A DNA stretch of 64,000 nucleotides from the NCBI GenBank assembly GCA_025612245.1, contig JAAXKQ010000005.1:70009-134008 (forward strand). The letters run 5' to 3'. Source of the stretch: Ignavibacteria bacterium (GTDB lineage: Bacteria; Bacteroidota; Ignavibacteria; Ignavibacteriales; SURF-24). Shown here piece by piece: positions 1,855 to 19,918 of the stretch (positions are counted from its first letter, which is position 1; each line of letters opens with the position of its first letter). The notes beneath the pieces were generated by a model that worked only from the letters and a program-made list of their open reading frames with translations, was not told where the DNA came from and searched no databases. The translations under genes were made by a program, and so were the position numbers.

Positions 1855-2885
1855 CGAAGCTCCTGATTCTGCTGGATTTCAAACAAGTGGACCAGCATTC
1901 TTTTTAAGAATATTGTCTTTCTTTTTCCCTGAATTACAGGCTTTCGGGGAATCTTTTTCTCCAGGCCTGACTTTTTCAGCATGCCTTCCAGGAGACACGA
2001 CAATGTATAAGTCTGTGCCGCCTGATCCATGTAGGAAATGTTGGGGTCAAATGATACGTCGTAGAACCAGAAATTCCCACTGTCATCCAGAACGCCGAAA
2101 GCCTCGTAAAAGCTCATTCCAAGCAGTCTAAAGAGGGTCTTACCCATATTCTTCAGCACTGGCTGAGGGATATAATGCGTAAATTTTTCCAGCTCCTCTT
2201 TGAAGGCCCCCCTTTCAGGCGGTGAAATCAGACTGATCAGAAGCGGGTTGTCCTCAAAAAATGTAAGCCTTAAAAGGCTTCCGCGCTTTGGTTCATACAT
2301 TAGGTGCGGAAGCGCTAAACTGCCCGCATTAAAAAGTTCTTCCAGCTTCTCGGAACCTATCTCCCTTACAGGCGTCATGGAATCGGGGCTGGACCAGAGA
2401 ATTCCCCCCAGGCGATTGAACATAAGCCTCGCTTCAGAAAGTGAGTTTGTAAGGCATAATTCCGGGACACTTAGCCCTGCATCCTTTAGTCTCATGAGCA
2501 CTTCATGCCTCGAAGTCAGGTTTAAGGACAAGCTGAAATCATTTATTACGGTATATTCATTTTTTTTTGACGAGAGTATGTAAAGCAGGCTGTAGAGCTG
2601 GCTTGTCTGCTGCTGCTGCGACAAGTGAAAGTCCTGAAAAAAGGTCCAGTCGGCAGAAGGTTTTAAGGCAGGGCCGAAGGGGAACCTATAATAGACTCCT
2701 GAAAGAAAAAATACGGATCCTTTTTCGGGCCTGGAGCCACACAGGAGTATTTCCTCCGGGGAAATTGATACTGTAAATTGAGGATCCTTCGGGCACAAAT
2801 TCCTACATTTGATTCCGTTTTTCCGTGCTATTTTCTTCAAGAGCTCCGTCTGAGGGTTATAGTCATCACTTATCAAATAGAGCAT
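1851..2885 (-). CDS. Divergent ATP-grasp-like protein
   Basis: 344 aa. The layout matches an ATP-grasp: RHEVLMRLKDAGLSVPE, then GGILWSSPDS, then LLRLTFFEDNPL, then GVLDDSGNFWFYDVSFDPN. The D-x-N metal motif reads D-V-S, so it is degenerate. Overlaps the TolC-like gene by 20 nt. Confidence 0.45.
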   Translation of the reverse strand: MLYLISDDYNPQTELLKKIARKNGIKCRNLCPKDPQFTVSISPEEILLCGSRPEKGSVFFLSGVYYRFPFGPALKPSADWTFFQDFHLSQQQQTSQLYSLLYILSSKKNEYTVINDFSLSLNLTSRHEVLMRLKDAGLSVPELCLTNSLSEARLMFNRLGGILWSSPDSMTPVREIGSEKLEELFNAGSLALPHLMYEPKRGSLLRLTFFEDNPLLISLISPPERGAFKEELEKFTHYIPQPVLKNMGKTLFRLLGMSFYEAFGVLDDSGNFWFYDVSFDPNISYMDQAAQTYTLSCLLEGMLKKSGLEKKIPRKPVIQGKRKTIFLKRMLVHLFEIQQNQELR

Positions 2886-4608: not shown

Positions 4609-6847
4609 AGTCTCCCGGTAAAATTTTATTTCTTGACTGTTCGGTGATCTGGACTGAAATGAGTCCGTCACGATTGGATAATATTTTTCCTTTCCCCGCA
4701 TAGGCCATTTCCTGTTCGCCAAGGAAATCCGACTTTGCGTTGCTGATCCTGGCAAACCTGACTTCCTTTCCGGCCTCAACAATCATGCTTGCCGGAAGCC
4801 TGAGCTGTGCAATTCCATTTTCAACTTTTACAACTTCCATGTAAAGCGGGACGTGCATCGTCACCTCAAAGACCATGCGGAACAAGTTAGGCGGATTGCT
4901 TTTTGCAACCATGCGGTTATAAAAGAGCTGCTTTTTTACTCCCGGTTTTTCCTTGAAGCAATTGAAAACATATTCATTAAGGCCGTCTTTCTGGTTAACC
5001 TGGCAATAGAGGGCTACCTTGGAAATCCTGTTCAGGTTAGCCTGTGAAAGCCTCAGGTTTTCGACATCCACGACTTCAAAGCCGCGTTGTGAAAGATTTG
5101 CCACCAGTGCACTTTTAAGCCTGCTGACGTCAAGTTTTCCATGAGCCTTGACAGGCATGAGAAATATCTTGTTCACCTTGGAGAGGCTTTCAGAATTGAA
5201 GCTCTGGAACATGGTTCTTAATTTACTCTCATCAACAGCTGCCCAGTCGCCATACGGGTGCAATGTAAAGGAGCTGCTGGAATAAATGACTGTCGGATCT
5301 GCCGTCCTGAGTATTGCCTGTATATTTGAAACGACGTTCTGCGAAATGTTATCTTTGCACCACATTAAAGACAAAGGCTCGCTGCCTACGGAGAAGTTCT
5401 CTATGAGATTTGCTCCAGGGTTGGCGTACTTGTAGTAGTAGGCCGCCTCTTCGCTCACGAAGGCCACGTCGCTTTTGCCAGCAATGACAGAGTCAATTGC
5501 ATTGTAGGACATTTTTGCGTAGCTGAGCCTTGAGAAGTATGTCTCGGGATCGACGCCGCTTTTATAGAGCGAGAGGAAGGGTGAAAGGTAAGCATTTTTT
5601 GAAAACACAGCCTTAGTTCCCCTGATGCCATAAATATTTTTGAAAGTCCTTCTGCTCGAAACGGCAACGACATTAACGTAATTTTTCTTGCTCCAGGTCC
5701 TAATCAGTATAGGATGCCCGGAATGCGAAGAGTACAGCCGGTCCGAGATAATATTGTTGAAAATTGCAATGCTTACCGCGCCACTGGTGTAAGCATCGTA
5801 GAGCTCTTCCTCGGAGCCGTAAATCTTGAGCTGGAACTCCACGCCGCAGTTTTTCTTCAGGAACTGCAGCACGGGTTGCCATTCGGCTGCCATGGTGGTG
5901 TTTCCCACCGGCAAGACTGAAGTGCTGCTGATGCCGATTACCACGTCGCCTATACCGGCTAAGCCCTGAAGAGAATTGTTCCCTATAATGGTGAGTTTCG
6001 GGAACTGCGACTGCAGGTCCTCCATTATGCTTGAGCGTTCCTCGGCATTTGTGGATTTCATGTACATGGAATACTTATCCCAGAATTTTTTCCATGCAAA
6101 AGCCTTGGGGTAAAGGTTATTGAATATATATTTAACAGTGCTGTACATGCCGGGAAATTTTTCCTTGAGAACAATGTCGTGAGCCTGAAGTATGTTTGTA
6201 ATGTTAGAGCCGTACGTAAAGAGCGAGTCTATCTTCCAGGATTCCGGCGCAACACTTGCAGCCTCCGGAGGGAGGGGATAATCGTTGTAAAACTTTACGA
6301 ATGGAACGACTTCACGGAACAGGTCGACCAGGAACAGCATGTCGGGATTGTTTTGTTTTACAAGCCTGAAATCCTCCTCATTCATAGCAGCCAGGCTGAC
6401 GTCGCCGTAGGTGGCAAACTCAATTTCAAGATTTATCACGTTCTTTCTGACAATCAGTTCACCGTAAATTTTCTTCAGCTCCTGCCTGGAAGGATATTTG
6501 TCAACTGCCAGCCTGAAGGTTTCTGTCAGGTCGTCAGTTTTTGTAAGAAGAGTATCGATCTGCTCCATTGTGGTGAAATTTCGTTCGGAATACTTAATGT
6601 AATTTTCAAACTCGCCCGTTATCTTTTTAACGTACAGGTTCTCCTCTCGGACGCCTCTGACATAAATAATAGCCGTAAGCAGGACGGAAAGGAATACAAC
6701 CAGGGTTACTCCGAGCATCGTTTTTCTTTTCTTTGAGAGCCTGAAAGCGTTGACCGGTTCTTCTTTAGGGGCTTCTTCTTTTGGAGTTTCTTCCTGTTCA
6801 AGGAAAAGCTTTATTCCCTCTTCATCTGTTATTTTATATTTATTCAC
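4589..6847 (-). CDS. Single-pass membrane protein with large extracytoplasmic region containing a PhnD-like (type-2 periplasmic binding protein) domain
   Basis: 752 aa. Charged N-terminus, then one TM helix (MLGVTLVVFLSVLLTAIIYV). The central segment EWQPVLQFLKKNCGVEFQLKIYGSEEELYDAYTSGAVSIAIF...GTKAVFSKNAYLSPFLSLYKSGVDPETYF...SDVAFVSEEA resembles phosphonate-binding (PhnD) folds. Its start codon directly abuts the upstream stop codon (6847/6848). Confidence 0.55.
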   Translation of the reverse strand: MNKYKITDEEGIKLFLEQEETPKEEAPKEEPVNAFRLSKKRKTMLGVTLVVFLSVLLTAIIYVRGVREENLYVKKITGEFENYIKYSERNFTTMEQIDTLLTKTDDLTETFRLAVDKYPSRQELKKIYGELIVRKNVINLEIEFATYGDVSLAAMNEEDFRLVKQNNPDMLFLVDLFREVVPFVKFYNDYPLPPEAASVAPESWKIDSLFTYGSNITNILQAHDIVLKEKFPGMYSTVKYIFNNLYPKAFAWKKFWDKYSMYMKSTNAEERSSIMEDLQSQFPKLTIIGNNSLQGLAGIGDVVIGISSTSVLPVGNTTMAAEWQPVLQFLKKNCGVEFQLKIYGSEEELYDAYTSGAVSIAIFNNIISDRLYSSHSGHPILIRTWSKKNYVNVVAVSSRRTFKNIYGIRGTKAVFSKNAYLSPFLSLYKSGVDPETYFSRLSYAKMSYNAIDSVIAGKSDVAFVSEEAAYYYKYANPGANLIENFSVGSEPLSLMWCKDNISQNVVSNIQAILRTADPTVIYSSSSFTLHPYGDWAAVDESKLRTMFQSFNSESLSKVNKIFLMPVKAHGKLDVSRLKSALVANLSQRGFEVVDVENLRLSQANLNRISKVALYCQVNQKDGLNEYVFNCFKEKPGVKKQLFYNRMVAKSNPPNLFRMVFEVTMHVPLYMEVVKVENGIAQLRLPASMIVEAGKEVRFARISNAKSDFLGEQEMAYAGKGKILSNRDGLISVQITEQSRNKILPGDYAEIIR

Positions 6848-8098
6848 TTATCTTTTCTCCTTAAATGAGGAAGGGTGGATGTTGTATTTTGTACAAAGCT
6901 GATAGATCCTTGAGAATGACAGACCGGCAGCCTTTGCCACCTGTTTGATTTCACCCTTGCATTCAGTCATCATTTTTTCCAGGGAGTCTTTGCTGTTAAC
7001 ACTTTTGGTGCCGTTTCCCATTGCAGGCACTTCCTCGGCAATAGGTTTATTTATTCCGTTAAACCTGTTCTGGTAAGTTTCCGTCAGGTGCTCAATTGAA
7101 GAAACGCTTCCTTCGGGTGTCAGTGCAATGATGAGTTTTGCAATGTTTTCAAGTTCCCTGATATTTCCCGGATAGTCGTACCTTGAGAACAGGAATTCCT
7201 TTAATTCTGCGCCCAGCTCCGGAACGGGCAGGTTCAGCTCCCTGGAAATGTTGCCCAGAAAATGTTCCAGCAGAAGCGGTATCTCGTCTTTTCTCTCCCT
7301 TAAAGGCGGCATATAGATCTCGCAGACCGAGAGCCTGTAATAAAGGTCCTCCCTGAACTTACCCTGCTCCATAAGGCGGCTTAAATTTTTATTCGTTGCG
7401 GCAATTACCCTTACATCAACGTTGACCGTTCTGTCCAATCCGATCTTTTGAATTTCGCCGAACTGAAGGACGCGCAAAAGTTTAACCTGAGTGCTTTCGT
7501 TGAGTTCACCTATTTCATCAAGAAATATGGTACCCCCGTCGGCTTCTTCGAACTTGCCGGGTCTGAAGCCTGAAGCTCCGGTAAAGGAGCCTTTCTGATA
7601 TCCGAAAAGCTCAGACTCAATCAGCTGCTCCGGTATGGCTCCGCAGTTTACTGGAAGGAATTTCTCTTTTTTGCTCAGCTGGTGAATTACCCTGGCAAAG
7701 ACTTCCTTGCCCGTACCGGTCTCACCAGTAATCAGTATCGGGTAGCCCGTTTTGGCAAAGCGAACGGCCATAGTAAGCAGCTTCATTATTTTGGGATTTT
7801 TACCGATAAAGTTCGGAAATTCGAACTCAGGAGCCCCGGTTCCTTCAGAAATGCCGTAGACATTACTTACCGGTGAGAACGATACGATCTGCCCACGAAG
7901 CATGTCCAGCTCGGTCAAAATCGAATGTCTTTCGGATTCCAGTAGCCTGCTGTTTGCAACCATCTGCCCCCGCAGGACTTCCACATGAAGGAGCATGTTA
8001 TTAATCCTGCTGCCCGAGCTGTAAAACGAAGCACTAACTTTGGCATCCAGTCTGTTGTTATCCTCAAGAGGAAGAATCTTCAGTTTAGTATTTTTCAT
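6848..8098 (-). CDS. Sigma-54-dependent transcriptional activator (bEBP) without a recognisable receiver or sensor domain
   Basis: 416 aa. AAA+ core with Walker [16 protein letters not shown], the GSFTGA loop (GAFTGA variant), Walker [19 protein letters not shown] and [11 protein letters not shown]-terminal Fis-type HTH (IKQVAKAAGLSFSRIYQLCTKY). Only about 95 aa of coiled-coil-like sequence lie N-terminal to the AAA+ core. Confidence 0.9.
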   Translation of the reverse strand: MKNTKLKILPLEDNNRLDAKVSASFYSSGSRINNMLLHVEVLRGQMVANSRLLESERHSILTELDMLRGQIVSFSPVSNVYGISEGTGAPEFEFPNFIGKNPKIMKLLTMAVRFAKTGYPILITGETGTGKEVFARVIHQLSKKEKFLPVNCGAIPEQLIESELFGYQKGSFTGASGFRPGKFEEADGGTIFLDEIGELNESTQVKLLRVLQFGEIQKIGLDRTVNVDVRVIAATNKNLSRLMEQGKFREDLYYRLSVCEIYMPPLRERKDEIPLLLEHFLGNISRELNLPVPELGAELKEFLFSRYDYPGNIRELENIAKLIIALTPEGSVSSIEHLTETYQNRFNGINKPIAEEVPAMGNGTKSVNSKDSLEKMMTECKGEIKQVAKAAGLSFSRIYQLCTKYNIHPSSFKEKR

Positions 8099-8118: not shown

Positions 8119-11100
8119 TTACTCGACTCCAAGCTGATCCTTTGCCATTGCATAATAGAATCCTTTCTGACGGATCAGTTCATCGTGAGTGCCTTTCTCC
8201 AGGACAATTCCGTCGCCGAGGAAACAGATTATGTCTGCGTTTCTTACCGTGCTCAGTCTGTGGGCAATGATAAAGGCCGTACGGTTAACGAGAATATTAT
8301 TCAGGTTTTCCTGAATCTTTCTTTCCGATTCCGCGTCAAGGGCTGATGTAGCCTCGTCAAAAATGAATATCTTGGGATTTCTGTAAAGCGCCCTTGCAAT
8401 GCAAATCCTCTGTTTTTGCCCGCCCGAGACTGCAAGGCCTCTTTCGCCGACTATCGTTTTATACCCGGCCGGCAGCTGTGTGATGAATTCATGGGCCGCG
8501 GCCATTTCTGCTGCCTCGCGGACCCTCTTCTCATCGGGATTTATGTCGCCAAGTGCTATGTTTTCCATTACCGTTCCGCTGAAAAGAAAACTTTCCTGGA
8601 GCACCATTCCGATGTTCCGTCTCAAAGAAAGGAGGTTAATATTCTTTATGTCAACCCCGTCAATCAGCAGTGAGCCTCCCGTAGGCATAATGAATCCCGG
8701 GATAGTTTTAATTAAAGTTGATTTGCCGCAGCCCGACTTGCCGACAAAGGCAACAACCTGACCGGGTTCCACTTTAAGGCTTATGCTTTTAAGTACGAGC
8801 GGTGAATCTTCAGAGCCATACCTGAACTGGAGGTTATTAAATTCAATGCGGCCATCGCAGTGTGTCATTTCGCGTTTTATTTCGCCGGCTGATACAACAG
8901 GTTTTTCCTCCGGCTCGCATTCAAAGACGTCGTTCAGCCTGTCCATTGCAACAGAAACCGACTGGTAGTTATCCCACAGTCCTACGATGCTCATGATAGG
9001 GCCCATTACAGAGCCTATAAGTGCATTAAATGCCATTAGCTGTCCGATGGACATAGAGCCATTGATTACCTGGTTGGAGCCCACCCAGAGTATGGCTACC
9101 GTAGATGCCGTATTCAGTGTCTGACTTATGACACCCGAGACTAGTCCCAGCTTCTGTGACTTAAAGGACAAGTTTACGGATTTCAGGAATGATTCTTCCC
9201 AGCGGTTTCTGACATTCCATTCCGTTCCGTTTGCCTTGATGGTCTCGATGCCGTGTATGGCTTCTATGAGATAGGATGACTGGTCGGAGCTAACAATGAA
9301 CTGCTCGTTGCTGATCCTTTTGAAAATAGGCGTAAAGACGAAGGTCAGCGCGATAAAAAACGGAATAAATGCAAGAACCACGAGTGAGAGTGTAACGCTG
9401 TAGAGAAACATCATCTGCAGATATACAACCAGCATAATTACGTTAAGGACCGTAGAAATTGAGGCCTCGGTAAGTATGGCCCTGATCTTTGAGTTTTCGC
9501 CAAAGCGCGTTATCGTGTCGCCAAGTTTCCTGTTGTAAAAATAACTCATCGGGAGGCTGAGCACGTACTTGAAAAACTCAGCCAGCATGCGAAGGTCCAG
9601 CTTGGCTGAAATGGTTGCAATTATGAACTGCTGGGCGCTCGAAGTCAAAGTGGAAAAGAAAGCAACGAGCACCATTCCCATCAGCATCATGTTCAATAGA
9701 GACGTGTTTTTATAGACTATTACGTTATCAAGAATGGACTGAATAAAAAGAGGGCTGGCAAGGCCCAGAATATTCAGTATGAGTGCCCCTATAAAGACCT
9801 CAATCAAGAAAATCTTCATTGGTTTCAGGTAGTTTATGTACCTGAATATCGGGTTCTTCGCCGGCTTGAGCTCATTAAGGCGTTCTGTAGGCTCAAGCTC
9901 AATGGCATAACCGGTCCAGCTTTTTTTGAACTCGCCGTGTGAAATTTTTCTGATTCCGATTGCAGGGTCAGCCACCCACACGAATTCTTTGGATATCTTA
10001 AAAAGTACAATCCAGTGATAACCCTGCCAGTGAAGAATGGCAGGAAGGTTTACATCTTTTAATGCCGGGTATGTAAGCTTCAGCCCGCGCGTCCTGAAGC
10101 CGAGGTTTTCACCTGCCTTGCACACGGCAGCCATTGAGGCGCCTGCAACAGAGACGTTTGCCATTTCCCTTACCATACCCATGCTCAGCTTGTGTCCGTA
10201 GAACTTGGAGACCATCGTAAGGCAGGCAGCACCGCAATCCATTTCGTCGTGCTGCCTGAGCCAGGGGAATTTCTTTATTTTCTTTCCCTCGTCGAAAGCA
10301 GGGAATTCATCCTCAGTTTCGCTTGTGTGAGAGCTGAGTTCTTTCTGGCGCTTCTCTTCAGTTTCGTAGCTGTTGATTTTCTCTAAAAGGGCCTCCCTCA
10401 GTGCTCCGTTCAAGGAAAATATTTCCTGGACAAAATTATTAGGGATTTCGAGCAATGTTGCGGCCGTCTTGGTCCTGGCTTCATAGCCCTGCTTCCGGCC
10501 AGTAATTGCTCCGTACTCGCCCAAAAAGTCGCCATTATGGGCCAGCCCGACGGAGAACTTGCCTTCGGGCATATCCCTGAGAATTTCTATAGAGCCCTTT
10601 ACGACGTAATAAAGGGAGTTGCTCATTTCGTCCTGTTTGAAGATGGTTTCGGCTTCTTCGTAGCCGGAAATCCAGACACTCTCAGAAAGCTGGCCTAGCC
10701 AGGCTTCGTCCGGCTTTTTGACTGCAACTATTTTTGAAAGCAATCTCTTAAATTCGGAGCATGCAATTTCTTTTTTCAGCTTGGAGGCAACACTGGCAAG
10801 CTCTGGCTTCCCGGCATTTATTTCATATACAAGGGTTTCATCGGCCGAAGAAATGGAATAATCCCAGCAGCCGGGCCTGATGAAAGACATCTCGCCCGTA
10901 AAGTCGCCGGCATTTAATTTCCCGACGCTTCTGAGTTTATCGTCAATCTTTTTTTTGAGGCGGAGGCTTCCTGAAACGACGGAAATAAAGGTATTCTGCT
11001 CATCGCCCTCGTTATAAAGCTCTTCGCCAAGAGTGAGCTTTCGTGTTGAGGTATTAGCCGAGAGAGCCTCCATCTCCTCAGCTGTAAGGCCGGAGAAGAG

Positions 11101-11148
11101 TGACACAGAATTTAATTTTTCTAAAACCGCATCTTCTTTAAAATACAT
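8119..11148 (-). CDS. C39 peptidase-domain ABC exporter with two N-terminal cyclic-nucleotide-binding-like domains
   Basis: 1009 aa. Two cNMP-like modules lie at about aa 15-125 and 150-250 (LFSGLTAEEMEAL...GDFTGEMSFI; YYVVKGSIEIL...GDFLGEYGAITG). The C39 domain has Gln299, Cys305 (RQHDEMDCGAACL), His378 (GYHWIVL) and Asp394 (VADPA). A six-helix TMD follows, then an NBD with GKSGCGKST, VSGGQKQR, IFIFDEATSALD and IIAHRLS. Confidence 0.9.
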   Translation of the reverse strand: MYFKEDAVLEKLNSVSLFSGLTAEEMEALSANTSTRKLTLGEELYNEGDEQNTFISVVSGSLRLKKKIDDKLRSVGKLNAGDFTGEMSFIRPGCWDYSISSADETLVYEINAGKPELASVASKLKKEIACSEFKRLLSKIVAVKKPDEAWLGQLSESVWISGYEEAETIFKQDEMSNSLYYVVKGSIEILRDMPEGKFSVGLAHNGDFLGEYGAITGRKQGYEARTKTAATLLEIPNNFVQEIFSLNGALREALLEKINSYETEEKRQKELSSHTSETEDEFPAFDEGKKIKKFPWLRQHDEMDCGAACLTMVSKFYGHKLSMGMVREMANVSVAGASMAAVCKAGENLGFRTRGLKLTYPALKDVNLPAILHWQGYHWIVLFKISKEFVWVADPAIGIRKISHGEFKKSWTGYAIELEPTERLNELKPAKNPIFRYINYLKPMKIFLIEVFIGALILNILGLASPLFIQSILDNVIVYKNTSLLNMMLMGMVLVAFFSTLTSSAQQFIIATISAKLDLRMLAEFFKYVLSLPMSYFYNRKLGDTITRFGENSKIRAILTEASISTVLNVIMLVVYLQMMFLYSVTLSLVVLAFIPFFIALTFVFTPIFKRISNEQFIVSSDQSSYLIEAIHGIETIKANGTEWNVRNRWEESFLKSVNLSFKSQKLGLVSGVISQTLNTASTVAILWVGSNQVINGSMSIGQLMAFNALIGSVMGPIMSIVGLWDNYQSVSVAMDRLNDVFECEPEEKPVVSAGEIKREMTHCDGRIEFNNLQFRYGSEDSPLVLKSISLKVEPGQVVAFVGKSGCGKSTLIKTIPGFIMPTGGSLLIDGVDIKNINLLSLRRNIGMVLQESFLFSGTVMENIALGDINPDEKRVREAAEMAAAHEFITQLPAGYKTIVGERGLAVSGGQKQRICIARALYRNPKIFIFDEATSALDAESERKIQENLNNILVNRTAFIIAHRLSTVRNADIICFLGDGIVLEKGTHDELIRQKGFYYAMAKDQLGVE

Positions 11149-11150
11149 AT

Positions 11151-12569
11151 CTATTTCCTTTCATCCTCACCGCTCAGGTAATCAAAGAACTTTCCTATAG
11201 GGGCAAAGACCAGTTCAATAATCCGTTTTTTACCTACAACAACTTCAGCCAGGCCGTTAGCCCCGTAAATCAGGTTTATTCTGGGGTTCTTTTTCGTAAA
11301 TCCCACCTGTGCTTCATAGACATATCCCAGGCCCTCGACGAGCTTTGTATCCTTTGCCAGGCTGACCAGCTGTCCTTCCTGGACCCCGTACTCCTGGTAG
11401 GGGAATGCGTGGAATTTTACGAATACCGGCTGACCAACTTTGACTTTTGAAATATCCTTGTTCTCAATGTATATCATTCCGTATCTTGGAAAATCGTTCC
11501 TGATTATCCGGCAGACAACCTCGCCCTGGTTGATCATTTGAGACGACTTTACGAAAAGCTGGCTTACGACGCCGGGGAACTGCGCTTTTACGATGGCCTG
11601 GCTTTGTGTTATTTCAACTCCCTCGGTCCTGCTGTTTACATTTTTTATCTGCAGGTTATAGTCCGAAAGCTGCGTGGCAAGGCTCTGCCTGAGTGAGCTC
11701 ATCTGTTTTAAGGCATTAAGGATGTCCGACTTGAATGAGCTGACATAGTTGTCTATTGTTGAAGAGACAGAGTAGTATTCTCTTTCCGAATTCATCAAAT
11801 CGGGACTGGAGATAATGCCTTGATTTAAGAGAGTCTTATTTTCATTATAAATTTTTGCGCGCTTTGAAAGAAGAATATCCGATTTCCTGACTTCATTAAG
11901 AAGATTGTTCGCACGCACCTTTAAGTCGGAGACCATCAGCCTGTATTCGTTGAGGCCGTTATATTGACTTACGTCATAAGCCGAGGAATCAAAACTGAAG
12001 TCATTCAGCTCTGCGATAACCTCGCCTGGAATAGGGACGCTGAATCTTTTATCTTTTTTCCCGTAGTATTCCCCGATTCCCTTTGTCTGCCTGATGAAGT
12101 CGCCCAGTTTTATTATCTTTTTAATTATTTCGTCGCGCTTATCTGTGAGATCCTTTTTTTCGAGTCCTGTCACGTTAATATTGGGGGAATAAATGGACAG
12201 GATTTCGTCATTAAAGGTGACGATGTCATTTTCATTGATCCCGAGTGAGGATACAATTCCGGAGAATGGCGCCTGCACGACGTATTCCTCGCCCCTTACG
12301 ATAAGGGGTGAACTGACCGTGTCGTCGACCTGCACAATTGTCGAATAGATGATGGCTCCGATTACAATTACAAAGACGAGATAGACCGGTCCCCTTAAAA
12401 CCCAGCTTGGAGGCGTATCCAGGAAAGTAGCTACAGAGACGGAAAATTCCTGCCTTGTTGTGTGCTCAAAGAGGTTTAGTGCCTTGTACTTTACGGGCTC
12501 ATTGTCTTTGGGGCTATCCTTTTTAAATTTTTTTCTGAAAAGAGAATAGAGTTTTTTTATTTTATCCAT
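11151..12569 (-). CDS. HlyD-family periplasmic adaptor (membrane fusion protein)
   Basis: 472 aa. N-terminal TM helix (VYLVFVIVIGAIIYSTIV), a lipoyl-like hairpin (VVQAPFSGIVSSL...ILSIYSP), a long coiled-coil, and a C-terminal beta-barrel (IVKAQFPGVVSQL...GEVVCRII). Ends 2 nt before the ABC gene. Confidence 0.8.
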   Translation of the reverse strand: MDKIKKLYSLFRKKFKKDSPKDNEPVKYKALNLFEHTTRQEFSVSVATFLDTPPSWVLRGPVYLVFVIVIGAIIYSTIVQVDDTVSSPLIVRGEEYVVQAPFSGIVSSLGINENDIVTFNDEILSIYSPNINVTGLEKKDLTDKRDEIIKKIIKLGDFIRQTKGIGEYYGKKDKRFSVPIPGEVIAELNDFSFDSSAYDVSQYNGLNEYRLMVSDLKVRANNLLNEVRKSDILLSKRAKIYNENKTLLNQGIISSPDLMNSEREYYSVSSTIDNYVSSFKSDILNALKQMSSLRQSLATQLSDYNLQIKNVNSRTEGVEITQSQAIVKAQFPGVVSQLFVKSSQMINQGEVVCRIIRNDFPRYGMIYIENKDISKVKVGQPVFVKFHAFPYQEYGVQEGQLVSLAKDTKLVEGLGYVYEAQVGFTKKNPRINLIYGANGLAEVVVGKKRIIELVFAPIGKFFDYLSGEDERK

Positions 12570-12640: not shown

Positions 12641-14761
12641 CTATTTTAAGATCATGATCTTTTGTGCCTGAGTAAAACTTCCACACCTCATCATCACAAA
12701 GTATGTGCCGCTTGGAAGATATTTTCTCCCCCATGAAAGCTTATGGTAACCTTTGGTCATCAGTCCTTTTAATATGTCTTCCACCTTTCTGCCCGTTACG
12801 TCATATAGTCCGATCTCGACATAGCCTTCCTTCGGGATGGAAAAGTGCAGAGTGGTAGATGGATTAAAGGGATTAGGATAAGGTTCATATAAAGCGTAAG
12901 CGCCTTTTTTAATCATGTCATTCGGAGTCTGGCAGTGCTGGTGAAACAGCCCCGTCACGGCTACGGGAAAAGGATTCGGATGCAGCAGGAATAACGGTAT
13001 TTCATCGGGGTTCTGCATGCCGTCATCTTCACAATAAAGGTAGTTATTTGTTACTTCAAGGTTTACCACTTTGAGGCTTTTCATCGTATCAGGTATTGTC
13101 TTGAGGAAGTTGTCTGATATGTTTATGGTTGCAACCGGGTTTTTGAGCTTTGTCAGGACAAGTGGCATTGAAGTAAACTTGTTGTTGTCGAGAGTTAAGT
13201 TAGCCAGGCTGTCAAGTCCGGAGAAACTCTCCGGAAGGTCCGTTAGCTCGTTATAAGACAGTGTAATGTTTACGAGCCTCATTTTTCCGAAATTCTCCGG
13301 GAGTCTGGCCAGTTTGTTGTTCTTAAGGCTGAGTACCCTGATCTCCGGGAGGTTGCAGAAGCTCTCCGGCAATTCCACCAGTTTATTATTCTCAAGGTTC
13401 TGCACCACAATACCCTTCAGATTTCCGTAGTTTTGCGGAAGGCGGGTAAGTTCGCAATTTTGCAGTGCAATTACGCGGAGCTGGGTCCCTATCTGCCCGA
13501 ATGTTTCGGGCAACGTTTCCAGGGGGTTGTCATTCAGATAAATTTCCTTCAGAGTGTGAAGGTTTCCTATGGAGCCCGGAATACTTGTAAGTGAATTGCC
13601 GTATAAAAAGACAGATTCAATGGATGGGAAGCTTCCGAAGGCAGAAGGCAGCAAAGAAAGGCTGTTGCTCGAAAGGTCCAGCATCTTTAGCTGCGGCATC
13701 AGTCCAATGTCATCCGGCAGAGATGATATCTTATTAACTGAGGCATTGAATGATTCAAGGCTATCCATCTGCCACATGTTTATGGGCAGCGTCTTTAAGG
13801 CATTTTTTGAAACGTTAAGAGACTTTAGCCCCTTCAGGCTTGTAATTCCGCCGGGAAGGACCTCAAAATTATTATCCGCAAGTATGAGCGTCTTCAGGCT
13901 AGTCTTCAGGCTAAAGAGCCCTTCAGGAAGCGTTTTCAGGTAATTTTTCTCAAGGTTGAGCAAATTTAGTTTCTTCAGGCCTCCAAGAGTTCCGGGGAGG
14001 CTTAAAAGAGAGTCATAAGTAAGAGATAATGTTTCGAGTCTGGACAAGCTCCCCGTGCTGTTCGGGAGCTTATAGAGCGAACGGTTGTTATCCAGGTAAA
14101 GTTCTGTAAGAGGTAGCCCATCCAGGTCTTCTTCTTTTATTTCTTTAATTATATTCCCGGCAAGGTTCAGATACTTCAGCTTACCAAGCCTGTTAAAGAA
14201 TTTGATGTCGGAGCCAAAGCCCGGGATGCAGAACAGTGTGTCTGCAGGCAGCCTCTGAAGTCCGTTTGCCGACAGGTCCAGATAGCTCAGTGAATTAAGA
14301 TACACAAACTTTTTCGGCAGGGCGGTAAGCCTGTTGCCGGAAAGGCTCAGGAACTGAAGGCCGGAAAAAGCAGTGATCTCATCGTCGAGGCTTTTAACGG
14401 CATTGTTATTCAGAATCAGTGTGTCTAAATTTGTGAGCTTGTAAAAATTTACGGGCAGGAAGGTAATCTTGTTATAGCTCAGGTCCAGATAGTGCAGTGC
14501 CGTAAGGTTTTCAATTGTTTCGGGAATATTTTCCAGGTCGTAATTGCTTACGATAAGTTTCTCGAGTCTCCCAGTAAAATAATTCCATTTTTGATAACCT
14601 ATCGATCCCGGGGCTTCACCATACAGGCTGTTTGCCGCACACAGATCCCTTATAAATTGAACGTCATCCTCATTAAGCGATAACTGAGCAAAGGTTGTCT
14701 GAAGGAAAATGCACTGAAAAGCTGCAACTAATACTAAATTTCTCAGCCAATTTATTTTCAT
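12641..14761 (-). CDS. Leucine-rich-repeat protein with T9SS C-terminal sorting domain
   Basis: 706 aa. Signal peptide (LVLVAAFQCIFLQTTFAQ). Roughly twenty 23-24-aa LxxLxLxxNxLxxLP repeats by hand estimate. C-terminus is YPNPFNPSTTLHFSIPKEGYVEIGLYDVTGRKV...KIMILK. The 71-nt gap to the HlyD gene has no evident hairpin. Confidence 0.85.
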   Translation of the reverse strand: MKINWLRNLVLVAAFQCIFLQTTFAQLSLNEDDVQFIRDLCAANSLYGEAPGSIGYQKWNYFTGRLEKLIVSNYDLENIPETIENLTALHYLDLSYNKITFLPVNFYKLTNLDTLILNNNAVKSLDDEITAFSGLQFLSLSGNRLTALPKKFVYLNSLSYLDLSANGLQRLPADTLFCIPGFGSDIKFFNRLGKLKYLNLAGNIIKEIKEEDLDGLPLTELYLDNNRSLYKLPNSTGSLSRLETLSLTYDSLLSLPGTLGGLKKLNLLNLEKNYLKTLPEGLFSLKTSLKTLILADNNFEVLPGGITSLKGLKSLNVSKNALKTLPINMWQMDSLESFNASVNKISSLPDDIGLMPQLKMLDLSSNSLSLLPSAFGSFPSIESVFLYGNSLTSIPGSIGNLHTLKEIYLNDNPLETLPETFGQIGTQLRVIALQNCELTRLPQNYGNLKGIVVQNLENNKLVELPESFCNLPEIRVLSLKNNKLARLPENFGKMRLVNITLSYNELTDLPESFSGLDSLANLTLDNNKFTSMPLVLTKLKNPVATINISDNFLKTIPDTMKSLKVVNLEVTNNYLYCEDDGMQNPDEIPLFLLHPNPFPVAVTGLFHQHCQTPNDMIKKGAYALYEPYPNPFNPSTTLHFSIPKEGYVEIGLYDVTGRKVEDILKGLMTKGYHKLSWGRKYLPSGTYFVMMRCGSFTQAQKIMILK

Positions 14762-14903: not shown

Positions 14904-16472
14904 ATGATGCCAGTGAAAGTTATAGCTTTAATTTCCTCCATGTTTGTACTTTCGTCCTTACTTACATTTGCAGGGGGAATCCGGGTTAAAAACGCCGTAA
15001 TTGATGAAATAAACCTGCAAAAGAAATATGCCTATGTGAGTTTTGACCTGAGCTGGGAAAACTCATGGCGGAGTGATCTGCCCGGAACGGGCCATGTTGA
15101 CCCTTTTAACCACGATGCCGCCTGGGTATTTGTGAAATATAAGGACCAGGCGGGCTACTTCAGGCATGCATTGCTTTCGAGCATAAGCCGGAGCCACGTT
15201 TCGGACGGGAAAGCTGCAATTAGTGCATCCCCGGATGGCAAGGGGGTCTTTATTTATTCCGGGAGCAATTTTTCGGGGCGCGCTGAATACAGGGGAATTA
15301 GGCTCAAATGGAATTTTGGTTCTGAAAATGCGGAAATTAAGAAAAGTACGGAGATCAGGGTCCTTGCTGTTGAAATGGTCTATGTTCCTGAAGGCTCCTT
15401 TTATGCCGGCGACGGCGCTTCCTATGGAAGCCTCTACGGCAAAACTCAGGATGTGCCATCGCTAATCGGCGAAGGCGAGAGCCTGGTTAGGGCTTCCAGG
15501 AACAGTTTTGATGATGAAGCTCTCATTCAGGAAGGATTTTGGATTTCGGGTAAATCGGGCATAAGATCCAAAGACGGCTCATTTGAAAATCCGGAATACC
15601 CGTGCGGATACGGAGCCTTCTATATTATGAAGTATGAAATATCACAGGGAGAGTATTCCGGGTTTTTGAACCTGATTTCGGTAAAACAGTCATACAGGCG
15701 TGAAGCAAAGGCCTATGGTGAATACAGGAATACGATCAGATTTGACGGAAATAAGTTTATTGCAGAACGCCCTTCAAGGGCCTGCAACTTTTTAAGCTGG
15801 ATGGATGGCGCTGCGTATGCAGACTGGACGGGGCTGCGCCCGATGAGTGAGCTTGAGTTTGAAAAAGCTGCCAGGGGTTTTAACTCCGGGGCAGGTCTTC
15901 CAAATGCCGCAAAAAAGAATGAATTTGCGTGGAATGATGATAGCATCAGTCCCGCACTGTCAATTGGGGGAAAGGAAGACGGTTCTGAGGTGGCCGAAGG
16001 TAATGCTGCATTTGGCAATGTAACCTATAAAGGAGGCGACGGTATGTCCGGTCCCTTGAGGTGCGGGATCTTTGAAAATCCGGGACAGGGGAAACTTTCA
16101 GGCCGAAGCTACTATGGGGTCCTGGACCTAAGCGGCAACCTTGCCGAACAGTGTGTTACAATCGGCAACCAGGCAGGCCGTTCATTTACAGGTAATGAAG
16201 GTGACGGCATGTTGAATGAAGCCGGGGACGCCGACGTAAGCTACTGGCCGGGCATTAATGGCAATTCAGATCAGGAGAAGTCAAGCCTGGCCTATGTGGG
16301 AAATGTTGTTGAAGGGCCCGGGGTTACTGCTGCAGCCGGAAGCGGGCAGAAAGGAGGCAGCTGGTATACGAAAAAGAGTTTCCTCATGATCAGCGACCGC
16401 TCGTACGCTTCACATCCGCTTGACTATAGATCCGAGTCCGCCGGTTTCAGATGCGTAAGAAGTGCCAGATAA
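14904..16472 (+). CDS. Exported FGE-sulfatase (SUMF1/GldK-like) domain protein
   Basis: 522 aa. Signal peptide (VIALISSMFVLSSLLTFAGG). The C-terminal half has SWMDGAAYADWTGLRPMSELEFEKAARG, YGVLDLSGNLAEQC, KGGSW and a terminal GFRCVRS, matching the formylglycine-generating-enzyme fold signature. Confidence 0.75.
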   Translation: MMPVKVIALISSMFVLSSLLTFAGGIRVKNAVIDEINLQKKYAYVSFDLSWENSWRSDLPGTGHVDPFNHDAAWVFVKYKDQAGYFRHALLSSISRSHVSDGKAAISASPDGKGVFIYSGSNFSGRAEYRGIRLKWNFGSENAEIKKSTEIRVLAVEMVYVPEGSFYAGDGASYGSLYGKTQDVPSLIGEGESLVRASRNSFDDEALIQEGFWISGKSGIRSKDGSFENPEYPCGYGAFYIMKYEISQGEYSGFLNLISVKQSYRREAKAYGEYRNTIRFDGNKFIAERPSRACNFLSWMDGAAYADWTGLRPMSELEFEKAARGFNSGAGLPNAAKKNEFAWNDDSISPALSIGGKEDGSEVAEGNAAFGNVTYKGGDGMSGPLRCGIFENPGQGKLSGRSYYGVLDLSGNLAEQCVTIGNQAGRSFTGNEGDGMLNEAGDADVSYWPGINGNSDQEKSSLAYVGNVVEGPGVTAAAGSGQKGGSWYTKKSFLMISDRSYASHPLDYRSESAGFRCVRSAR

Positions 16473-16639: not shown

Positions 16640-16655
16640 AGGCATAAAACTTGTT
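16640..16655 (+). promoter_or_regulatory. Weak sigma-54 -24/-12-like element upstream of the precursor genes
   Basis: AGGCAT-N5-TTGT compared with the consensus TGGCAC-N5-TTGC. GG is at the correct -24 position but the -12 GC reads GT. Lies 55 nt upstream of the ATG at 16711. Confidence 0.25.
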
Positions 16656-16710
16656 CAAGAAATAACAGATATTTATTTATGCTTACTCAAAATTTAACAG
16701 GAGGCCCTAC

Positions 16711-17157
16711 ATGGCAAGAATTAAATTAAATGATCTGGAAGTTAACCAGCAGCTTGATGCTGAGGCACTGAAGAATGTAACCGGCGGCGCCGGGACATAT
16801 ACAAATGCTGCTAATACCGGGACGAAAACCGGAGGAAATTCATCAAACTATGGTACACAGTCCGGCGGAACGGGTGGTTCGGGCGGTTATGCAAGCGGCG
16901 GCTCTACAAGCGGCGGAAGCGGCTTTGGAGGCCAGGGTATAGGCGGCGGAGCATCTTCAGGCGGATGGGGCTTCTTAAATTTTGGCGGCGGAAATAAAGG
17001 CGGCGCTGGCTATGGCGGCAATGCGTCGGCTTCGACCATTGGAGCAGTCGGTGGCGCCGGTGGCGCAGGCGGGTCAGCCGTGGGTGTCATGAATTCCGGC
17101 AATGTTACCGACAACATGTCTGAATCAGTTTCAATTCCTGTTACACTAAGCTTATAA
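16711..17157 (+). CDS. Double-glycine-leader, glycine-rich secreted protein precursor 1
   Basis: 148 aa. AGGAGG Shine-Dalgarno sequence 7 nt upstream. The leader MARIKLNDLEVNQQLDAEALKNVTGG has hydrophobic residues at -4, -7 and -12 and Glu at -9 relative to the GG. The 122-aa core has no Cys and 42 Gly by hand count. Conserved C-terminal tail SGNVTDNMSESVSIPVTLSL. Confidence 0.85.
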   Translation: MARIKLNDLEVNQQLDAEALKNVTGGAGTYTNAANTGTKTGGNSSNYGTQSGGTGGSGGYASGGSTSGGSGFGGQGIGGGASSGGWGFLNFGGGNKGGAGYGGNASASTIGAVGGAGGAGGSAVGVMNSGNVTDNMSESVSIPVTLSL

Positions 17158-17167
17158 GGAGAATAAT

Positions 17168-17620
17168 ATGTCGAGAATAAAATTAAATGACCTCGAAGAA
17201 AATCAGCAGCTTGATGCTGAAGCATTAAAACAGGTTACAGGCGGAAACAATATCACAAACTCAGCAAATACCGGAACCAAGACCGGAGGAAACTCAACCA
17301 ACTACGGCACACAGTCCGGCGGAACGGGTGGTTCGGGCGGCGGATCATACGGCGGATGGACCTCAGGCGGCAGCGCAGGCGGTGGAACAGGTTTTGGCGG
17401 CAGTGCTACGGGCGGAGCCGGAAGCTGGGGCTTCCTGAACTTCGGCAGCACTGGTAATAAAGGCGGCGCTGGCTATGGCGGCAATGCATCGGCTTCGACC
17501 ATTGGAGCAGTCGGTGGCGCCGGTGGCGCAGGCGGGTCAGCCGTGGGTGTAATGGGTTCAGGAAACGTTTCCGACAACGTTTCAGAATCTGTTTCCATTC
17601 CAATTACCATGTCATTATGA
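17168..17620 (+). CDS. Double-glycine-leader, glycine-rich secreted protein precursor 2
   Basis: 150 aa. AAGGAG Shine-Dalgarno sequence. Leader MSRIKLNDLEENQQLDAEALKQVTGG. The core is collinear with precursor 1 (GTKTGGNS.NYGTQSGGTGGSGG, WGFLNFG, NKGGAGYGGNASASTIGAVGGAGGAGGSAVGVM, SESVSIP). Confidence 0.85.
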   Translation: MSRIKLNDLEENQQLDAEALKQVTGGNNITNSANTGTKTGGNSTNYGTQSGGTGGSGGGSYGGWTSGGSAGGGTGFGGSATGGAGSWGFLNFGSTGNKGGAGYGGNASASTIGAVGGAGGAGGSAVGVMGSGNVSDNVSESVSIPITMSL

Positions 17621-17630
17621 TTTTCAAAAA

Positions 17631-17658
17631 GATCCCGGAATATCCGGGATCTTTTTTC
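17631..17658 (+). terminator. Rho-independent terminator after the precursor pair
   Basis: GATCCCGG(A)-loop-(T)CCGGGATC stem (17631-17651) followed by T6 (17652-17657). Begins 11 nt after the stop codon. Confidence 0.8.
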
Positions 17659-17803
17659 TTCAGCTGCATCTCAATGCTGAAAAATAAAAAATGTTCGATG
17701 ATAATTTGTGAATGAATTTTTACTGAGTTTTCGTTAACTTGTTCCCCGATTTTTGTTCCCAAGACCATTGGGAATTTAACTGTTTATCTTGCAAGGAGGA
17801 TTC

Positions 17804-19120
17804 ATGGAAAAATATTTCTTTAATGTTCGTAATTCCCGGATATACTGTTCTGACGTCCTGAACTTCATGAAATTAACCGGCCTTTATCATACAGCTCATA
17901 CCTATACGGCAATGAACTCGGTCCTGAAAGAATTTGCAAAAAAGCTTGGCGTAGCAGTTAGCGATGAGATGCTCCAGAATTATGCTGATTATAAAAGAAA
18001 GCAGCTTGGACTTCTGAAGGCAGAGCAGATGCAGAAATACCTCGATACGCTGGAAGTCTCACTTGAGGACTGGGAGACTTCGCTGGAAGATGAACTCTAC
18101 CGTATTGAGCTCAGGAATAAATTGGGAGGTTCCATTTATGTCGGTGACGCCTGGAACATACTCAAGACGATTCCGGAGATCAGAAACAGCATAAATGAAA
18201 TTATAGCAGAAAAAGCTGGCAGCTGCAAATTGGACTTAAGCGACGAAGAGCTTCAAAAGGAATCGGATGTTTTAAGACGAGCCCTTAACCTCCACAAGAA
18301 AAGTGATCTCTCGGTATACCTGAACAGCCTCAACATGAATGAAGAGGACTGGGAGAAAAACGTAACAGCGAGCGTTTTTTCGAGAAAGTTAAAAGAAAAG
18401 AATATTTCTCCTTTAACCAAAAATGAAGTAGCCAGCATATTAAACCGCTACCCCGTAATAAAGGATCTCCTGAGTAAACTTGTCTTCGGCAATATTATAA
18501 GGGCCAAAGCTTCAGAACTGAATATTTCGGTTAGCGATGAAGAGCTCAACTCCTACGCCGAAAACTTCCGCAGGGCTTTAGGTCTCCATAAAACAGAGCA
18601 TTTTAACATCTGGCTGAATGCCGCCGGATTAAATATAGAAGATTTTGAAATTATGGCTGAAACGGCCATACTGGCAAAGAAGGTAATTCAAAACTCAGAT
18701 GAACTACAGTACAAGGGCGACATTGAAAAAAGCGTAAAGTGCAGTTCATTTTTCAGCGATGCTCTCCTGGAAGTAATCTCGCAGGAGCTCATCGCCTCCG
18801 AAGCAAGGCAGAAAGGAATGAAGGTCAGTGACGCTGAACTGCAGGAACTTTCCGATGCTTTAAGGCGCGTCAACGGATATCACAAGGCTTCAGTATTCGA
18901 AAAACACCTGGAATTCTACGGCCTGCCTGCTGAATGCTGGGAAGAGTACGTTGAAAGACAATCTTTGATTAAAAAGATGAAAGAGGCCCAGACCACTGAT
19001 GAGAGGGTTCTGGAGTATCTCCATGATAATAAAGAAGCTTTAGATTCAATGAAAGCTGAAGCATTCAGGGACTACGCTTATAAGCTGTCTTCAAAGTCTC
19101 AACTTGAATGGTTCAACTAA
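17804..19120 (+). CDS. Cytoplasmic protein built from four SurA-N-terminal-like repeats
   Basis: Start moved to the ATG at 17804, which has an AAGGAGGA Shine-Dalgarno sequence upstream. 438 aa with no signal peptide. A module of about 95 aa recurs four times: x(V/L)SDxELQxxxDxxRRxLGLHKxxxFxxxLxxxGLxxEDWE, with the SD(E/A)E cores encoded near 17957, 18236, 18530 and 18824. Confidence 0.6.
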   Translation: MEKYFFNVRNSRIYCSDVLNFMKLTGLYHTAHTYTAMNSVLKEFAKKLGVAVSDEMLQNYADYKRKQLGLLKAEQMQKYLDTLEVSLEDWETSLEDELYRIELRNKLGGSIYVGDAWNILKTIPEIRNSINEIIAEKAGSCKLDLSDEELQKESDVLRRALNLHKKSDLSVYLNSLNMNEEDWEKNVTASVFSRKLKEKNISPLTKNEVASILNRYPVIKDLLSKLVFGNIIRAKASELNISVSDEELNSYAENFRRALGLHKTEHFNIWLNAAGLNIEDFEIMAETAILAKKVIQNSDELQYKGDIEKSVKCSSFFSDALLEVISQELIASEARQKGMKVSDAELQELSDALRRVNGYHKASVFEKHLEFYGLPAECWEEYVERQSLIKKMKEAQTTDERVLEYLHDNKEALDSMKAEAFRDYAYKLSSKSQLEWFN

Positions 19121-19159
19121 TCAGTTTCATTTTTTCAATAATTTAACCGGATAACTTAC

Positions 19160-19918
19160 ATGGACGAAGTAGTTTTATTAAATGTCAATGATAACCCTGT
19201 TACAAATTCCCAGATCATGATCAGGCTGAAAGCGAAAGGCGAATATAAAAAAGCCTTATCAGAACAGATGATGAATGTTGCATTGAAGGACTATGCCCAG
19301 AAAAACGGCATATCGGTTTCAGATTCAGAACTGCAGGAATATGCCGATAAAAAAAGAAAGGAACTGGGTCTTTTCTCGGTGACCGCTACGGAAAAATATT
19401 TTTCCAACCTGGGAATTAACATAGACCAGTGGAGTGACGGGCTAGAAGAAGAGCTCTTAAAAGAAAAGGTCAAAAAAACAGTTGCTACAGAAGAAAAAGT
19501 AAAAGAGTATTTTGAAGCCAACAGGCTGCGCTTTATTTGTGTGCCGCTGCACAGAATAGTAGTAAAAGAAAAATCCATGGCAGAAGAAATCAGGATGCAG
19601 ATAGAAGACGAGGACGAGGACTTTTCCGCACTGGCCAAAAAGTACTCTATCGACAGCTCTACAGCCCCAACGGGCGGCTATATGGGGGTAATCAGGCGGG
19701 GTGCTCTTCCGGTTGAAGTTGAAGCAAAAGTATTCAGCGCAGCCGAAAATGAACTCTGCGGCGTTTTTGAAGATGCTGATGGATATTCCCTGTACAAGCC
19801 CGGGAAAGTCGTATATCCCGAACTTGACGAGGCCATGAAGGAGAATATAATAAAAGGATTGTTTGACCTATGGACAAATAACCTTCTTAATTCGGCAACC
19901 ATAAAATTCCCTAACTAA
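19160..19918 (+). CDS. Parvulin-type peptidyl-prolyl isomerase with one SurA-N-like module, no signal peptide
   Basis: 252 aa. The N-terminal half is homologous to the repeats of the upstream gene (NGISVSDSELQEYADKKRKELGLFSVTATEKYFSNLGINIDQWSD). The C-terminal rotamase-like segment is HRIVVKEKSMAEEI...FSALAKKYSIDSSTAPTGGYMGVIRRGALPVEVEAKVFS. Confidence 0.7.
   Translation: MDEVVLLNVNDNPVTNSQIMIRLKAKGEYKKALSEQMMNVALKDYAQKNGISVSDSELQEYADKKRKELGLFSVTATEKYFSNLGINIDQWSDGLEEELLKEKVKKTVATEEKVKEYFEANRLRFICVPLHRIVVKEKSMAEEIRMQIEDEDEDFSALAKKYSIDSSTAPTGGYMGVIRRGALPVEVEAKVFSAAENELCGVFEDADGYSLYKPGKVVYPELDEAMKENIIKGLFDLWTNNLLNSATIKFPN

Follow-up and report, generated by a model that had tools for sequence, protein, structure and literature searches.

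The 64,000-nucleotide stretch of an Ignavibacteria bacterium contig analyzed here (JAAXKQ010000005.1, positions 70,009 to 134,008; hereafter, the window) contains two adjacent open reading frames (ORFs), ORF1 at 16711-17157 and ORF2 at 17168-17620 on the plus strand, which are probably paralogous precursors of a secreted graspetide-like product. An ATP-grasp enzyme encoded in the same cluster would link Lys39 to Asp134 of the precursor, a C39 peptidase would cleave off the leader and a type I system would export the product. The Lys39-Asp134 link was proposed because the lysine and the aspartate are invariant, that is, from conservation alone. A cross-link was considered likely because an ATP-grasp pair (772-2885) and SurA/PpiC-like genes (17789-19918), none of which had been seen in the original prediction, are also present. 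That prediction, made from the letters of the window, suggested that the two proteins could be membrane-active toxins, cross-linked RiPP-like proteins or self-assembling extracellular material. The gene context favored the cross-linked RiPP-like protein but did not decide between a toxin and a matrix material.

Precursor gene 1 encodes 148 amino acids, with the leader in residues 1-26 (nt 16711-16788) and the core in residues 27-148 (nt 16789-17154). The codons of the two invariant residues are located at 16825-16827 (Lys39) and 17110-17112 (Asp134). Precursor gene 2 encodes 150 amino acids, with the leader at nt 17168-17245 and the core at nt 17246-17617. The N-termini of both ORFs read M(A/S)RIKLNDLE(V/E)NQQLDAEALK(N/Q)VTGG. 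Each gene is preceded by a Shine-Dalgarno sequence, AGGAGG at 16699-16704, 7 nt before the ATG of gene 1, and AAGGAG at 17156-17161, 6 nt before the ATG of gene 2. Core 1 has 122 residues, including 42 Gly, one Pro, two Lys, one Asp and one Glu, with no Cys, Arg or His. Core 2 is slightly longer, 124 residues, also with 42 Gly and with the same numbers of Lys, Asp, Glu, Pro and Cys. Both cores are 34% Gly and nearly neutral. When the sequence was re-read, the coordinates, the sequences, the Shine-Dalgarno sites, the core starts at nt 16789 and 17246 and the composition of core 1 were all found to be as originally described. In contrast, the stretch that had been called glycine-zipper-like did not hold up, since the spacing of Gly in the cores was weakly periodic at lag 3 (GGx) and a GxxxG pattern did not appear consistently.

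An intrinsic terminator, a 14-bp stem followed by a run of T, is located 3' of ORF2 at 17626-17661 (plus strand). The hairpin was overlooked by a terminator scanner and confirmed by RNA folding (dG -20.9 kcal/mol, z -4.55). Because this hairpin and U-run are found after ORF2, the two ORFs form one transcription unit. ORF1 and ORF2 are 82% identical, with 0.82 synonymous (dS) and 0.15 nonsynonymous (dN) substitutions per site. The resulting dN/dS ratio of 0.18 indicates that the precursor frame is under purifying selection. Moreover, leader, head and tail recur together in homologues on independent contigs. These observations confirmed that the two ORFs are real coding genes. The low-complexity sequence, the antisense ORFs that overlap the precursor genes and the absence of the exact sequences from a collection of 15 billion proteins could suggest instead that the ORFs are chance open frames in a GC-rich low-complexity stretch. 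The probability of this explanation is negligible; it is already refuted by the dN/dS ratio, the two Shine-Dalgarno sites, the terminator after ORF2 and the conservation of leader, head and tail in dozens of homologues from many phyla. The antisense ORFs, at 17010-17225 (71 aa) and 17406-17603 (65 aa) on the minus strand, are rich in Pro, Ala and Arg and were rejected as genes, being by-products of a GGN-rich coding strand read backwards.

The neighboring enzymes have exact NCBI matches from an Ignavibacteria metagenome-assembled genome that are labelled only "ATP-grasp domain-containing protein" or "hypothetical protein". The 15-billion-protein collection contains the flanking enzymes but no exact copy of either precursor. 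The precursors were evidently either not called by the gene callers or called with other ends.

Neither the precursors nor their shorter relatives, described below, belong to a Pfam or NCBIfam family. Because Gly-rich words saturated a word-indexed homology search, which gave two matches, an exhaustive search was used instead. The exhaustive phmmer search of 1.84 billion cluster representatives recovered four true relatives with the same architecture, while two other matches (P0004 and P0007) were rejected as repeat-protein noise. A metagenome scan using patterns derived from the leader gave no matches. The relatives, together with the paralogues on their contigs, made up an alignment of 11 long-type members. 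Following the shared leader, these proteins have a head with the pattern NTGTK(T/S)GG...N.G.Q.GG, a variable Gly-rich middle that leads into the block IGAVGG.GGAGG.AVG, and a tail, G.V(S/T)D(N/Q).S.S.S(I/V)P(V/I)T. The invariant residues of the core other than Gly are K39, N46, Q50, D134 and P143. The original prediction held that both Lys, the Asp and the Glu of the core are at conserved positions. This is the case for the two paralogues, but across the family invariance is confined to K39, the Lys of GTKTGG, and D134, the Asp of V[T/S]DN, and does not extend to the second Lys (GNKGG) or the Glu (SESV).

The short-type relatives are peptides of 85-95 amino acids, encoded in 2-5 tandem copies and lacking a double-glycine leader. 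They follow the pattern M..TGVGV.QSG-K-x-GG-(D/E), a Gly-rich stretch, and then (V/A)(S/T)D(N/Q)TSIG(S/D)I(N/T)(I/V)xx. Their genes adjoin the same ligase in Proteobacteria, Planctomycetota and Hydrogenedentes (loci L015, L018, L020, L022-L032, L034, L035 and L041-L046). Thus, the window proteins represent the longer branch, with a double-glycine leader, of a larger family. Participation of N46 or Q50 in a link common to the whole family was rejected, as the short-type peptides do not have these residues. The parts that are fixed throughout the family are the two ends of the core, a head, G-K-x-G-G, and a tail, (S/T)-D-(N/Q)-x-S-x-x-(I/V). The span from the Lys to the Asp is 37-74 residues in the short type and 89-106 in the long type, a range of 37-106 overall. 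Since the intervening sequence is poorly conserved and variable in length, the ends are likely to be functional and the middle a flexible spacer. An AlphaFold2 model from a seven-sequence input (pLDDT 43) had a leader helix at residues 7-24 and a disordered core, which fits a flexible loop but proves nothing.

To avoid circularity, the hidden Markov models (HMMs) of the family were rebuilt with the K and D columns masked. The masked models collected 67 unique segments, in which the K or the D was missing only from fragments that were truncated at a contig edge or frameshifted. Every complete peptide had the Lys of G-K-x-G-G, N-terminal to the Asp of D-N/Q. In a motif scan, the invariant Lys was the sole Lys in 30 of 46 unique peptides, and most short-type members have no other Lys. 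In L003 (42-695), the protein P0001 consists of the N-terminus of a low-molecular-weight phosphatase fused in frame to a precursor without its Met; the start was probably miscalled, or the short contig is a chimera. In L004, a 222-aa ORF with no family match (8655-9323) lies between the precursor copies.

The predicted cross-linking enzyme is an ATP-grasp ligase of 360 amino acids (772-1854, minus strand) that falls in the graspetide-synthetase clade. When a profile of five orthologues was compared with solved structures, the top five PDB matches were all graspetide synthetases, PsnB (7DRM, 8e-30), CdnC (2e-13), MdnC (4e-11), MdnB (1e-7) and then AMdnB, while RimK was found at 0.05. The key residues of PsnB, according to Song et al., are Arg72, Lys172, Thr180, Arg213, which recognizes the ring-forming acid, and a D(F/W)R loop (bioRxiv 10.1101/2021.03.09.434688). 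These residues align to R72, K175, T183, R214 and D234-S235-R236 of the window ligase. The first four do not vary among 37 homologues. In all those that align at the loop (36/37) it reads D-S-R, so that the Asp and Arg are kept and the aromatic residue is replaced by Ser. The bit scores against the curated models were all far under the cut-offs (TIGR04184, 50.4 vs 475; TIGR04185, 30.7 vs 425; TIGR04187, 50.1 vs 350).

The gene next to the ligase (1851-2885, minus strand) encodes a protein of 344 amino acids that is a divergent paralogue of the ligase (hhalign 98.5%; PsnB 2e-9) and its predicted non-catalytic partner. An invariant Trp replaces the ATP-binding Lys and the DSR loop is absent, while 20 of 21 paralogues still have an Arg at the position of PsnB R213. 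This pattern of loss and retention marks the 344-aa protein as a pseudo-enzyme and suggests a partner or scaffold role.

The ligase alignment was scanned over 185,579 species genomes and the JGI metagenomes, which yielded 38 further loci. These belong to Kapabacteria, Fibrobacter, Planctomycetota, Hydrogenedentes, Magnetococcales, Methylococcales and other Alpha-, Beta-, Gamma- and Deltaproteobacteria, and most of them encode short-type peptides. Ignavibacteria are also represented among the ligase loci as a whole, and the cluster recurs in at least eight phyla. Genes for homologous Gly-rich peptides were present in 35 of 46 ligase loci, mostly no more than a few hundred bases away from the ligase gene. 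Many loci keep a sigma-54 activator, a PpiC-like protein, an HlyD protein, a peptidase-containing ABC transporter (PCAT) of about 1050 amino acids, the peptides, the ligase, its paralogue and an outer-membrane efflux protein (OEP).

Graspetide synthetases phosphorylate the side chain of an Asp or Glu and couple it to an upstream Ser, Thr or Lys (bioRxiv 10.1101/2021.03.09.434688; PMC12291112). A nucleophile toward the N-terminus and an acid toward the C-terminus is the usual graspetide polarity, and the precursors, judged from the positions of the two residues, match it. In the proposed mechanism, the ligase would phosphorylate the side-chain carboxylate of Asp134 in the cytoplasm, with Arg214 in the role of PsnB Arg213. 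Attack by the epsilon-amine of Lys39 would then form one isopeptide (a macrolactam) that closes a Gly-rich loop of 96 residues, or 99 residues in ORF2. The ligase would probably act in a complex with its non-catalytic paralogue and perhaps also with the SurA/PpiC-like proteins. These proteins could be a chaperone for the ligase or the substrate, as MirC is, or could keep the substrate export-competent. The C39 domain would subsequently cut after Gly26 and the ABC-HlyD-OEP type I system would export a product of about 10 kDa. Export is possibly gated by cyclic nucleotides and transcription would depend on sigma-54. A more specific version of the proposal is tentative and at present somewhat doubtful, namely a near-circular, Gly-rich protein of about 10 kDa with one Lys-Asp isopeptide and a ring of about 96 residues (37-106 in the family), made by a heterocomplex of the ligase and the pseudo-ligase. 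In such a heterocomplex, the head motif would be held by one subunit and the tail motif by its partner.

The ATP-grasp pair might instead modify the precursors in other ways, by forming one or more Ser/Thr-Asp esters close to the head and tail motifs or by joining the Lys and Asp of different molecules head to tail into oligomers or a covalent extracellular material. Both invariant residues have Thr and Ser as neighbors (NTGTKTGG; V[T/S]DN.S), and esters make up most of the known graspetide links. The flanking Ser and Thr, however, are not invariant, whereas the Lys is, and in the 30 peptides noted above no other Lys is present. The 2-5 tandem paralogues would be as expected for building blocks, and the Gly/Ser/Ala-rich, disordered and uncharged composition would suit a material. 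Proteins with a double-glycine leader that are exported by a PCAT do enable biofilm formation in Synechococcus (EbfG/PteB, PMC4997328). On the other hand, the ATP-dependent ligation must occur inside the cell, in the cytoplasm, and a PCAT/TolC conduit would not easily let covalent polymers through. In addition, a graspetide synthetase closed an engineered 72-aa (GSSG)18 loop and no oligomers were obtained with long engineered loops (PMC12291112). Ester or intermolecular linkage is, on this evidence, unlikely, and the intramolecular Lys39-Asp134 link is preferred.

The leaders of both ORFs fit the double-glycine consensus. Counting back from the predicted cut after G26, V occupies position -4, L -7, E -9 and L -12. 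A cognate C39 exporter is present in the locus. The assignment of a double-glycine leader in the original prediction was therefore upheld. The leader is kept in the 11 long-type members. Comparison with curated leader HMMs, which had been recommended as a check, and with bacteriocin HMMs gave no Pfam or NCBIfam match at E<=0.1, weak evidence given that short leader models are insensitive. The exporter gene (8119-11148, minus strand) lies 5.6 kb upstream of the precursors and encodes a PCAT of 1009 amino acids, consisting of two domains that bind cyclic nucleoside monophosphates (cNMP), a C39 peptidase, a transmembrane domain and an ATPase. The Q/C/H/D catalytic residues of the C39 domain (PF03412, 8.5e-35) are intact and were found in the motifs QHDEMDCGAACL, GYHWIVL and WVADPA. 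The two cNMP-binding domains suggest that export is nucleotide-gated. The other components are an HlyD-family periplasmic adaptor (11151-12569, minus strand, 472 aa) and a TolC-like outer-membrane efflux protein (2866-4608, minus strand). Translation of the latter probably starts at the ATG at 4608, which precedes the signal peptide, although the longest possible frame extends to 4782. The association of homologues with a C39 transporter had been named as a point on which the original prediction could fail; the same exporter was present in 4 of the 4 related loci long enough to judge, and the prediction was not refuted on this point. The catalytic Cys of the C39 domain is gone from the PCAT of four short-type loci (L016, L030, L034 and L036), which would make these domains C39-like, and is retained in L012, L017, L022, L026 and the window. 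The window clade combines a canonical leader with a competent peptidase.

The canonical leader and the complete PCAT-HlyD-OEP exporter raise another possibility, that the precursors are exported unmodified, as toxins resembling class II microcins or bacteriocins or as an EbfG-like matrix, and that the ATP-grasp genes act on another substrate. Gly-rich microcins with a double-glycine leader exist. The ligase and the precursors are separated by 14.8 kb in the window, and cyanobacterial PCAT-HlyD-SurA cassettes work without ATP-grasp enzymes (PMC3140520). Several observations make unmodified export improbable: the ligase gene lies beside the peptide genes in most of the 35 loci, across many phyla; the nearest characterized relatives of the ligase are all peptide macrocyclases; no conserved immunity-like gene was found among the cluster genes compared; and there is no sequence relation to known microcins. 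Furthermore, in the short-type relatives, which lack a leader, the K and D motifs persist even in loci whose PCAT has lost its catalytic Cys, so the motifs do not serve the peptidase as export signals.

The class II microcins (colicin V, MccE492/H47/M) resemble the window proteins in having a double-glycine leader, export by a C39-ABC transporter, a membrane fusion protein and TolC, and a Gly/Ser-rich core; those of class IIb also have a conserved C-terminal tail. The core of the window proteins is longer, however, and their tail has an invariant Asp-Asn rather than a Ser-rich siderophore acceptor. None of the marks of class IIb, glycosyltransferase, acyltransferase and esterase genes of the mceC/I/J type or an immunity gene, was found in the cluster, nor any sequence similarity. 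The likeness to colicin V and the class IIb microcins that had been pointed out consequently extends to composition, but not to sequence or to genes for siderophore attachment.

The graspetides made by PsnB-type enzymes (plesiocin of group 2, the microviridins and chryseoviridin) share with this system a homologous ligase with the acid-recognizing Arg, the ATP-binding Lys and Thr and a D-x-R loop, and several graspetide groups also have a GG motif and a PCAT. Their precursors have short, repeated, tightly ringed motifs, in contrast to the core of 122-124 amino acids with 34% Gly and a single donor/acceptor pair 89-106 residues apart. The DSR loop, the obligatory dead paralogue and the scores below cut-off also set the window system apart.

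A closer parallel is the rosaritide cluster, which has an ATP-grasp enzyme, a PpiC/SurA-like partner of the TIGR04500 family and a PCAT (Carter et al. 2026, PMC13097080). Rosaritide synthesis needs this partner, which co-purifies with the ligase (PMC13097080). The window shares with the rosaritide type (group 21) the combination of precursor, ATP-grasp enzyme, NHLM-type PCAT and a TIGR04500-like PpiC/SurA-like protein that carries no secretion signal. Group 21 is found in actinobacteria and its short precursors contain three lactones, whereas the window has two SurA/PpiC-like proteins and a pseudo-ligase, and the PpiC-like gene is found with the export genes in distant loci. The models of group 21 were among the best matches, all below threshold (TIGR04187, 50.1 vs 350 bits; TIGR03796, 550 vs 853 bits; TIGR04500 likewise). 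The cluster resembles the group 21 type without being a member, and with all relevant NCBIfam scores far under their cut-offs it also falls outside the curated families.

The cyanobacterial long-type cassettes of PCAT, HlyD and a SurA (rotamase) protein (groups I, II and VI of Wang et al. 2011, PMC3140520; Dirix et al. 2004) have a C39-ABC protein with an N-terminal extension of about 300 amino acids, an HlyD protein and a rotamase protein, as here, and precursors of up to about 160 amino acids that have a double-glycine leader and are often unannotated. They differ in the absence of an ATP-grasp pair and in their precursors (NHLP, Nif11, HetP-like and EbfG), which are unrelated in sequence. 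The EbfG/PteB system demonstrates that the substrate of a PCAT need not be a toxin and can be a protein of the biofilm matrix (PMC4997328).

The SurA/PpiC-like pair lies downstream of the precursors. The first gene (17789-19120, plus strand) encodes a cytoplasmic SurA-N-like protein of 443 amino acids (438 from the ATG at 17804) with SurA-N-like repeats, and the second (19160-19918, plus strand) a cytoplasmic PrsA/PpiC-like protein of 252 amino acids that combines a SurA-like chaperone part with a parvulin domain. The two proteins lack a signal peptide and score below the TIGR04500 threshold (99.9 and 71.7 bits vs 180).

Several points weigh against a graspetide-like product with a Lys39-Asp134 link. 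Natural graspetide rings of 60-100 residues are, to our knowledge, without precedent. The predicted ligase is far under the TIGR04184 and TIGR04187 cut-offs and its loop reads DSR, not D(F/W)R. No peptide gene was present in the DNA covered for 11 of the 46 ligase loci, and in the window the precursors are at the opposite end of the cluster from the ligase, the 14.8 kb mentioned above. The SurA/PpiC-like proteins may serve export rather than ligation, because such genes sit in the export module of distant loci and because they are found with the cyanobacterial PCAT-HlyD cassettes that have no ATP-grasp enzyme. The match to a sigma-54 promoter before the window precursors, described below, is weak. 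Finally, the engineered 72-aa loop was closed inefficiently and native graspetide loops are about 10 amino acids (PMC12291112).

The conserved gene set includes a sigma-54-dependent activator of 416 amino acids without a receiver domain (6848-8098, minus strand). A consensus scan of the window found no sigma-54 site with two or fewer mismatches upstream of the precursors. By eye, a weak and uncertain candidate, AGGCAT-N5-TTGTT at 16640-16655 (plus strand), has three mismatches to TGGCAC-N5-TTGCW. Much better sites precede the precursors in L010 (TGGTAC-N5-TTGCA) and L004 (TGGTAT-N5-TTGCC).

The cluster extends over about 19 kb, and the same neighbors are found on the contigs that carry relatives of the precursors. 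A membrane-anchored protein of 752 amino acids with an N-terminal anchor, a periplasmic-binding (Phosphonate-bd) domain and a C-terminal region without an assigned domain (4589-6847, minus strand) is conserved only in L001, L004, L007 and L009, loci of the Ignavibacteria/Kapabacteria type, and could be a sensor. Two genes located between the HlyD gene and the precursors were rejected as members of the cluster as they are not conserved elsewhere. One encodes a leucine-rich repeat (LRR) protein with a C-terminal sorting domain of the type IX secretion system (12641-14761, minus strand) and the other a secreted protein resembling FGE-sulfatase and GldK (14904-16472, plus strand). An LRR protein also occurs beside the cluster in L004 (11705-13663). 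At the edge of the cluster, a gene for a DUF4395 membrane protein (301-759, plus strand) is convergent with the ligase gene. In three independent related loci, a lipoprotein of about 165 amino acids resembling DUF6252/Riean_0653 adjoins the precursors (L001, 140-640; L003, 761-1267; L007, 9497-9991). Although the window lacks such a gene, the lipoprotein could act as an accessory factor or confer immunity.

No model, motif string or paper on these peptides was found, although the supplements of two large graspetide surveys were available only in part and a prior listing is possible. The family is invisible in present annotation, as gene callers seem to miss it. The product could be a protease-resistant agent of the bacteriocin kind or a matrix or surface material, and its neutral, Gly/Ser/Ala-rich, multi-copy nature fits the matrix role and the bacteriocin role equally well. 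If the proposed link is correct, the ring would far surpass all other natural graspetide macrocycles in size, and graspetide chemistry would reach beyond small protease-inhibitor peptides and take in small proteins. The link would represent a natural use of a graspetide-type ligase on very long, flexible, Gly-rich loops, which have so far only been engineered, and the ligase/pseudo-ligase pair would join a recent theme of partner-dependent graspetide synthesis. The long type with a double-glycine leader and the short leaderless type would together constitute a new, phylum-spanning class of side-chain-cyclized secreted proteins. The cluster would then define a conserved secretion-coupled system, with a sigma-54 activator, a cNMP-gated PCAT, an HlyD protein and an OEP, that is spread over Ignavibacteria, Planctomycetota, magnetotactic bacteria and many Proteobacteria.

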